Source: Octopus vulgaris (lineage: Eukaryota). From it: a stretch of DNA of 64,000 nt. Location: contig OX597814.1 in NCBI GenBank assembly GCA_951406725.2, positions 214,334,001 to 214,398,000 of the forward strand, written 5' to 3'. Position numbers and translations under genes: made by a program. The notes beneath the pieces were generated by a model. It was not told the origin of the DNA. It did no database searches and saw only the letters and a program-made list of their open reading frames with translations. This document shows positions 56,405-58,660 of the stretch, in pieces; the first letter of the stretch is position 1; the number at the start of each line of letters is the position of its first letter.

Positions 56405-56761
56405 TATAATAATAATGAAATTGTTGTATACAGTGCTCAGGTGCACCACAACTTGTCAGAAAGTGCATATAAAGCACATGCAGTAATGTAAAAATGTTTG
56501 GAAAGCGAACAATGTATGAGTCAGATACATGCTTGTGTGTGTATAGAGGGGAGAAAATCAGGTGTAGTGTTGGCGAATCTCAGGAAGCATGGAAGTTTTG
56601 AAGGATGCAGTGCTCCGATACCTAACAACTGATGCCGGCAGTTTGTTACATGCTTCAGCAACTCTCAGCATGAAAAAATGTTTCCTGAAGTCATGGGAGC
56701 TGTGCTGTTTTCTGACTTTGTAAACATGTCCATGGGTGTTAGATGGGTGGAGTTTGAAAAG
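56405..56761 (-). mobile_element. CR1-type LINE 3' end (second family)
   Basis: The - strand reads LFKLHPSNTHGHVYKVRKQ...FRKHFFMLRVAEACNKLPASVV...SFKTSML...*, followed by a 3' UTR and short (ATT)n. Confidence 0.82.
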
Positions 56762-58660
56762 GTTATTGTTTGTAAGATGGTTAAAAATTTTCTACAAGAG
56801 TTATTGTTTGTAAGATGGTTGATAATTTTCTACGAGAGTTATTGTTTGTAAGATGGTTAATAATTTTCTACGAGAGTTATTGTTTGTAAGATGGTTAATA
56901 ATTTTCTACAAGAGTTATTGTTTGTAAGATGGTTAATAATTTTCTACGAGAGTTATTGTTTGTAAGATGGTTGATAATTTTCTACAAGAGTTATTGTTTG
57001 TAAGATGGTTAATAATTTTCTACAAGAGTTATTGTTTGTAAGATGGTTAATAATTTTCTACAAGAGTTATTGTTTGTAAGATGGTTAATAATTTTCTACA
57101 AGAGTTATTGTTTGTAAGATGGTTAATAATTTTCTACAAGAGTTATTGTTTGTAAGATGGTTAATAATTTTCTACGAGAGTTATTGTTTGTAAGATGGTT
57201 GATAATTTTCTACGAGAGTTATTGTTTGTAAGATGGTTAATAATTTTCTACAAGAGTTATTGTTTGTAAGATGGTTGATAATTTTCTACAAGAGTTATTG
57301 TTTGTAAGATGGTTGATAATTTTCTACAAGAGTTATTGTTTGTAAGATGGTTGATAATTTTCTACAAGAGTTATTGTTTGTAAGATGGTTAATAATTTTC
57401 TACAAGAGTTATTGTTTGTAAGATGGTTAATAATTTTCTACAAGAGTTATTGTTTGTAAGATGGTTAATAATTTTCTACAAGAGTTATTGTTTGTAAGAT
57501 GGTTAATAATTTTCTACAAGAGTTATTGTTTGTAAGATGGTTAATAATTTTCTACAAGAGTTATTGTTTGTAAGATGGTTAATAATTTTCTACCAGAGTT
57601 ATTGTTTGTAAGATGGTTAAAAATTTTCTACAAGAGTTATTGTTTGTAAGATGGTTGATAATTTTCTACGAGAGTTATTGTTTGTAAGATGGTTGATAAT
57701 TTTCTACAAGAGTTATTGTTTGTAAGATGGTTGATAATTTTCTACGAGAGTTATTGTTTGTAAGATGGTTGATAATTTTCTACAAGAGTTATTGTTTGTA
57801 AGATGGTTGATAATTTTCTACGAGAGTTATTGTTTGTAAGATGGTTGATAATTTTCTACAAGAGTTATTGTTTGTAAGATGGTTAATAATTTTCTACAAG
57901 AGTTATTGTTTGTAAGATGGTTAATAATTTTCTACAAGAGTTATTGTTTGTAAGATGGTTAATAATTTTCTACAAGAGTTATTGTTTGTAAGATGGTTGA
58001 TAATTTTCTACAAGAGTTATTGTTTGTAAGATGGTTAATAATTTTCTACAAGAGTTATTGTTTGTAAGATGGTTAATAATTTTCTACGAGAGTTATTGTT
58101 TGTAAGATGGTTGATAATTTTCTACGAGAGTTATTGTTTGTAAGATGGTTGATAATTTTCTACAAGAGCTATTGTTTGTAAGATGGTTAATAATTTTCTA
58201 CAAGAGTTATTGTTTGTAAGATGGTTAATAATTTTCTACAAGAGTTATTGTTTGTAAGATGGTTAATAATTTTCTACAAGAGTTATTGTTTGTAAGATGG
58301 TTGATAATTTTCTACAAAAGTTATTGTTTGTAAGATGGTTAATAATTTTCTACAAGAGTTATTGTTTGTAAGATGGTTAATAATTTTCTACAAGAGTTAT
58401 TGTTTGTAAGATGGTTAATAATTTTCTACAAGAGTTATTGTTTGTAAGATGGTTAATAATTTTCTACAAGAGTTATTGTTTGTAAGATGGTTAATAATTT
58501 TCTACAAGAGTTATTGTTTGTAAGATGGTTAATAATTTTCTACAAGAGTTATTGTTTGTAAGATGGTTAATAATTTTCTACAAGAGTTATTGTTTGTAAG
58601 ATGGTTAATAATTTTCTACAAGAGTTATTGTTTGTAAGATGGTTAATAATTTTCTACAAG
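56762..58660 (-). repeat. Tandem array of 50 x 38-bp units
   Basis: + strand unit GTTATTGTTTGTAAGATGGTT(A/G)ATAATTTTCTAC(A/G)AGA. First and last unit starts (56762, 58624) are exactly 49 x 38 apart. Confidence 0.97.

Follow-up and report, generated by a model that had tools for sequence, protein, structure and literature searches.

The tandem array of 38-bp units lying in an intron of a USP47-like gene of Octopus vulgaris is a minisatellite confined to a single locus. We consider it likely that it was seeded when sequence spanning the 5' joint of a shortened CR1 LINE was duplicated, and that it was expanded later at the DNA level. The window, that is, the whole 64,000-nucleotide stretch that was analysed, contains gene, element and array in the following arrangement (positions are those of the window).

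56269-56365, plus strand: exon of the USP47-like deubiquitinase gene, with the Cys box (Pfam UCH, E 5e-9; PDB USP47).
56399-56403, minus strand: candidate target-site duplication, 3' copy TAGAA (TAGAACA if taken to 56397), read from the sequence.
56404-56557, minus strand: CR1 3' UTR and (ATT)n tail, from the family alignment and 32-mer matches.
56558-56791, minus strand: C-terminal piece of a CR1-type ORF2, with a 9-nt deletion at the array's inner edge and its stop codon at 56558-56560.
56762-58661, minus strand: minisatellite of 50 units of 38 bp, the unit being 33 nt of CR1 ORF2 plus 5 nt of flank.
58652-58656, minus strand: candidate target-site duplication, 5' copy TAGAA, covering the first two LINE bases, read from the sequence.
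58654-58660, minus strand: the 5 flank bases present in the unit and the 2-nt microhomology CT bounding the duplication, from alignments.
58773-58851, plus strand: likely next exon of the USP47-like gene (AG/GT ends, open frame).

The best PDB match of the first exon is USP47 (E 3.5e-13). The candidate exon at 58773-58851 gave no Pfam match, and we take it to be USP47-like. LINE and array are contained in the intron between them (56366-58772), where the LINE is antisense to the gene; with both, the intron measures 2.4 kb, and about 157 bp without the insert. The array locus is neutral-looking intronic DNA. Longer dispersed repeats (334 bp x 2; about 184 bp x 3 or more) were also seen in tandem, at 59612-60274 of the window, in L142 (window-equivalent 64062-65711) and in L132 (2128-2678).

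Cutting the array into units yielded 50 consecutive copies of exactly 38 bp, and TRF called 50.3 copies at 56762-58672 with 97% matches and 0% indels, in agreement with the array free of net indels that the original prediction had described. Also as predicted, the innermost unit on the minus strand continues in frame to the C-terminus of ORF2 (LFKLHPSNTHGH...IRQHYT*). Since 38 is not a multiple of 3, the reading frame is kept in this last unit only. The innermost unit carries a 9-nt deletion relative to the family, which is found in 1 of 82 other copies. The unit had been taken for CR1 ORF2 sequence throughout. This is correct for 33 of its 38 nt, but the remaining 5 are absent from the family, both in the alignment of 29 copies and in direct alignment, and correspond to the outer flank bases at 58654-58658, which adjoin the outermost unit. 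The LINE sequence that closes the unit and the flank that opens it have a 2-nt repeat, CT, in common. Given this make-up, the unit is, as read from the alignments, a duplication across the LINE 5' joint.

The LINE on the array's inner side is about 390 bp long, of CR1 type and truncated at its 5' end. Exact genome matches to a 32-mer of its 3' end numbered 4562, hence the family has at least 4562 copies. The window's ORF2 piece matches the C-terminus of a long family copy (L126) whose ORF2 has an APE endonuclease (Exo_endo_phos, E 1.6e-9) followed by a reverse transcriptase (RVT_1, E 8.8e-36; both Pfam), as in CR1-type elements. The short-repeat 3' tail and the common 5' truncation of this type are present as well; over 98 copies the distance to the anchor had a median of 413 bp. 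The CR1 label is provisional and based on motifs. Family copies have matching sequence directly upstream of the fragment, so the unit maps to the 5' truncation point, where it had been predicted to lie. The 5-nt candidate target duplication brackets array and LINE together; its length, however, is near chance in the family, since duplications of at least 5 nt occur at 19 of 96 junctions versus about 12 in shuffles, which is barely above, and TAGAA is therefore only a candidate. Many copies in the CR1 alignment look like mosaics of two subfamily haplotypes, which suggests conversion or template switching. Truncated CR1 3' ends are stacked head to tail in twos or threes at L011 and L064/L065, and a CR1 pair 7.9 kb apart (L002, L003; G000:C4:52.30 Mb) has equal query scores with different 5' ends and 3' flanks.

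The sequence of the unit-unit joint matched the genome 46 times, and all 46 matches fell at the array locus. The array is therefore a single-locus minisatellite and not a member of a satellite family, which rules out a dispersed satellite with long or multi-locus arrays. A unit longer than 6-10 nt in up to about 100 copies defines a minisatellite by unit size and copy number (PMC6947457), and 38 bp x 50 falls within these bounds. The original prediction favoured a telomerase-like or rolling mode of reverse transcription, with a 38-nt segment of LINE RNA as template. The ORF2 origin of 33 of the 38 nt and their position at the truncation point would agree with such a process, but it does not account for 5 nt per unit that the family lacks, nor for a unit joint confined to this locus in a family of at least 4562 copies: the same unit was not remade at many insertions, and other arrays use other units. 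No RNA or hairpin structure bounding the segment was found in 101 nt of L006 (MFE z 0.63, for pseudoknot-free folds). We regard reiteration of LINE RNA as very improbable; it would require as template a read-through RNA transcribed from an element such as copy B, described below. A source subfamily carrying the flank bases was rejected, as the flank-junction motif occurs at only 2 places in the genome, 14.4 kb apart. Searching with 121 nt of flank, by a method that skips common words, matched only the flank itself.

A second array in the window had been put forward as an independent case of the same process, at the 5' end of an unrelated LINE.

10164-13158, plus strand: array of 45 units of 67 bp, in which the 3' UTR repeat native to an RTE-type LINE has been expanded.

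Among the 29 closest relatives, those reaching far enough show a reverse transcriptase frame, a stop, the 3' UTR and then 2-4 native 67-bp units. Another RTE-type copy (L174, G000:C31:130400-133602) has 10 internal 67-bp units with element sequence still upstream, and a reverse transcriptase ORF precedes the 3' UTR with the 67-bp repeat in L164, L167 and L169, as in RTE-type elements; the RTE label is again provisional and based on motifs. Most copies are truncated inside the 67-bp repeat, and an array at the 5' end is therefore expected. The 44 units cut out of the array fell into 16 types, with repeated multi-unit blocks visible by eye. As a native internal repeat, the 67-bp array is ruled out as a second junction-born array, which removes the claimed pair of unrelated LINEs with arrays at their 5' ends; it lends no support to reiterative reverse transcription.

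Differences between the units of the 38-bp array were mapped. Two variants recur, one in 16 and the other in 10 of the 50 units, and all four combinations at these two sites are present (29, 10, 6 and 4 units, plus 1 other), giving the interspersed variant repeats that characterize minisatellites; the outer nine units are uniform. Adjacent units were no more alike than in shuffles of the 50-unit map (P 0.26), and no higher-order block of the 38-bp map stood out (P 0.23). The same two sites are hit in many units, more often than independent copying errors from one RNA would do. Such sharing points to turnover at the DNA level, and the four-haplotype mosaic is a further argument against reiteration of LINE RNA. 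In a human minisatellite, gene conversion between units has been proposed as the driver (PMC2599865). Rare substitutions amount to 4 in the 1900 bp of the array, while units that all dated back as far as the LINE body should have gathered 11-23 (P(<=6) 0.06 with a lenient count, 3e-5 with the other count). The low divergence does not date the first duplicate, because homogenisation also reduces divergence and can give an old array a young appearance.

The structured variant map across units also argues against an assembly artefact that inflated or invented the array. The copy number of 50 is that of the assembly alone, which would leave room for such an artefact. Against it, if weakly, sample X2 yielded a 68-nt contig over a unit-unit joint, with 32 + 36 letters on its two sides, 3 of them differing, at a depth of 7.8. 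We give an artefact next to no credence. Part of the left flank was present in 20 of 24 sequencing runs, and the unique flank and exon at 58686-58865 gave one 36-nt match in contigs of four runs, X2 among them, so that the absence of an empty allele from these contigs carries no weight. Flank matches of 35 nt in X2, X4 and X17 ran into unrelated DNA and were judged to be chance.

The second place of the flank-junction motif is a sister CR1 copy, named here copy B, which lies outside the window on the same strand, 14.4 kb beyond the array (G000:C1:214406639-214407094; L142, L146).

58654-58685, minus strand: outer flank of the array, also present at the 5' junction of copy B (2 places in the genome).

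Truncation of copy B falls at the same position as in the array LINE, and an identical ~30 nt of flank stands before it. It has one unit and lacks the 9-nt deletion. Its 5' end is composed of three parts: 38 nt of internal LINE sequence, ~30 nt of array-locus flank, and then LINE. The array LINE (A) and copy B are identical at 349 of 372 positions (6.2% apart, rank 48 of 78), have no private substitution in common and differ in their outer flanks. A segmental duplication was rejected because no common sequence extends past the ~30 nt of flank. Without a shared private substitution and with 6.2% divergence, B is no plain duplicate of A; from these features and the differing outer flanks, we infer that B probably captured A's junction alone, while it was itself being inserted or repaired. 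For L1, insertion sites with sequence templated by genomic DNA close by have been described (PMC11702581), and copy B is alike in that its 5' joint carries ~30 nt from 14 kb off. The accessible part of that study concerns human cells with induced L1 and reports no repeat expansion. The junction in copy B reads AACA, as in the inferred empty target, whereas the array units read AAAA. This suggests that B records A's junction from before the array; alternatively, a single random substitution may account for AACA, or B may have taken up just the outermost unit of a pre-existing array. The reading of the flank bases as host target would rest on copy B together with the 5-nt target duplication, which is not above chance.

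We then compared the 5' joints of other LINEs. The CR1 sample comprised 125 copies, 122 of them with a visible 5' joint; L065, L131, L142 and L143 were left out as duplicate or selected, and L027, L029, L132 and L144 for want of an anchor. From the list of junctions, L070 was dropped for its chance likeness to a SINE tail, and L052/L059 were treated as one inherited duplication near the 5' end. The joint of a 34-bp internal duplication and a small insertion are common to L052 and L059, which likely go back to one source element. None of the 122 sampled 5' junctions carried 8 or more units. L061 (G000:C1:7432477-7435508) has a 5.8 x 26-bp array of 99% identity at its CR1 5' joint, with a unit made of an inverted LINE piece and AT-rich flank, and L082 has a 31-bp duplicate. 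Internal arrays were found in L080 (27 x 3) and L123 (16 x 3.4).

Genome-wide, five two-motif probes, in which a motif is repeated at short distance, covered about 1200 joints and returned 9 loci, or 8 without the window locus. Four of these 8 lie at 5' joints (C14, 20 x 48; C19, 2 x 39; C25, 2 x 24; C4, 2 x 35) and four inside LINE bodies, where they consist of 2-3 units or show a complex change. Judged by 98 unselected copies, the expectation was 0.82 of the 8 loci within 50 nt of the 5' end (P 0.004-0.006); with a generous 20% prior P is 0.056, and the 8 loci are a small number classed by eye. The largest array (G000:C14:7806434-7807100; L180-L188) spans its CR1 5' joint with 20 units of 48 bp and is followed by a 188-bp duplication. 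Its unit consists of about 8 nt of flank and 40 nt of LINE with a 3-nt microhomology, GAC, and variants are common to non-adjacent units, so that its anatomy is that of the window array. Flank or LINE bases at the joint together with microhomology were found at the window (CT), C14 (GAC), C19, C25 and C4. These loci support the expansion seeded at the junction that had been suggested as one possible origin. Of the enrichment of arrays at LINE 5' ends, also foreseen, one part was recovered: seed duplications look enriched at the 5' joints, but the number of long arrays is compatible with background, a single unselected long array among about 1200 joints being within chance.

The same comparison bears on a view in which an ordinary late replication slip made the first duplicate and the LINE joint had no special role. 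We judge this unlikely. Four of the 8 other duplications, and the arrays of L080 and L123, are internal to LINEs, and copy B has only one unit; moreover, evenly spaced samples totalling 600 kb contained two minisatellites with at least 8 units and one satellite, which puts such minisatellites at about 1 per 300 kb, with no LINE beside the one that was checked. However, chance position predicts a junction share of about 10% rather than 4 of 8, and both arrays found with 20 or more units sit at LINE 5' junctions and span them. Among the background samples, L218 (2598-2973) holds a minisatellite of 37 bp x 10 that matched none of the other loci compared, and in L252 a 369-bp satellite fills the 10-kb sample.

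L061 raises a different question, that of whether ORF2p or a repair polymerase cycled over the joined junction and made most units at insertion, with later conversion adding the variants. Its highly similar copies of an inverted LINE piece and flank are what repeated prime-and-release would give, and the equal length of all units in the window is in keeping with such synthesis. Yet the window array is less diverged than its LINE body, most junction duplications have two units and copy B one, and the shared variants require later turnover anyway, which alone can explain the length. One-shot synthesis therefore seems quite improbable to us, and we retain a seed duplication at the joint followed by later growth.

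The formation of the minisatellite may be pictured in three steps. A CR1 RNA would have been reverse transcribed into the ~157-bp intron in antisense orientation, the 5' joint being made once ~390 nt had been copied; the element and its position are observed, and the insertion route follows what is known of the family. The strand that had passed the new joint would next have realigned on CT 38 nt further back, so that 5 nt of flank and 33 nt of LINE were copied twice, as the make-up of the unit suggests. Because short duplications are in excess at the family's 5' ends, we lean, with modest confidence, towards seeding at the time of 5'-end joining or shortly thereafter, through host repair synthesis or ORF2p, rather than by a later replication slip. 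Flank- and LINE-templated extra bases have been described at 5' junctions of zebrafish ZfL2 LINEs (PMC4245944, PMC4760211). The seed would finally have grown to 50 units by slippage and gene conversion, with variants still exchanged between units, a process consistent with the variant map. In the Haber-Louis model, short flanking repeats seed an array that then grows by slippage or conversion; the 2-nt microhomology at the window joint is shorter than the 5-10 bp of that model (PMC6947457). Expansion out of a seed duplication is the usual model for minisatellites (PMC6947457).

The origin of a minisatellite's first duplicate is an old and poorly tested question. LINE 5'-end joining may be a regular source of minisatellites in animal genomes, with the polymerase slipping back over the joint, at times for several rounds per insertion, although we put this forward tentatively, at somewhat less than even confidence. 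If LINE 5' joints do seed duplicates in excess, seeds acquire a known place and a relative date; if 5' joining does so regularly, any truncated LINE becomes more likely to give rise to a locus-specific VNTR in which the unit would record the LINE's insertion joint. The idea can be tested in any long-read genome by intersecting tandem repeats with 5' breakpoints.

Telomerase produces head-to-tail copies of fixed length by reiterative reverse transcription, the whole unit being templated by RNA and bounded by RNA structure, and DRT2 (PMC12039810) is a further system of this kind. The window array shares with both the head-to-tail copies of fixed length, but its unit includes flank DNA and no bounding structure was found; the array is not evidence for a telomerase-like LINE enzyme. 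Drosophila R1 shows target duplications of 16-27 nt with microhomology at its 5' junctions, which resemble the short joint duplication of the window; R1 is site-specific, however, and duplicates the target only, with no minisatellite mentioned in the available text (PMC2718515), whereas the window unit combines LINE and flank. ZfL2-1 (CR1-1_DR) and ZfL2-2 are similar to the window in their 1-2 nt of microhomology, their ~5-bp target duplication and the origin of their extra bases in flank or LINE. Their additions are single and short, and the accessible parts of these reports do not mention growth to 20-50 units (PMC4245944, PMC4760211, PMC2666801), while the window array grew to 50.

Tandem repeats derived from transposons are well documented: Alu, B1, MaLR, Gmr9/Ogre, the CR1-derived chicken HinfI and the L1 ORF2-related PROsat have been tabulated (PMC6947457, PMC9659126), and maize CRM1TR/CRM4TR are derived from retroelements (PMC3648361). 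Repeats of this kind, CR1-derived ones included, are thus already known, and what would be modestly new here is the seeding route at the LINE-host joint; minisatellite units spanning LINE 5' joints were not found in the mostly open-access literature searched. As far as the available text of these sources goes (PMC6947457, PMC9659126, PMC3648361), transposon-derived minisatellites and the window array have in common a retroelement unit, a single locus, an origin proposed to lie in short direct repeats and an expansion ascribed to slippage or gene conversion. They differ in the source of the unit, which comes from inside the element in the former, whereas in the window and at the second locus it spans the joint between element and host.
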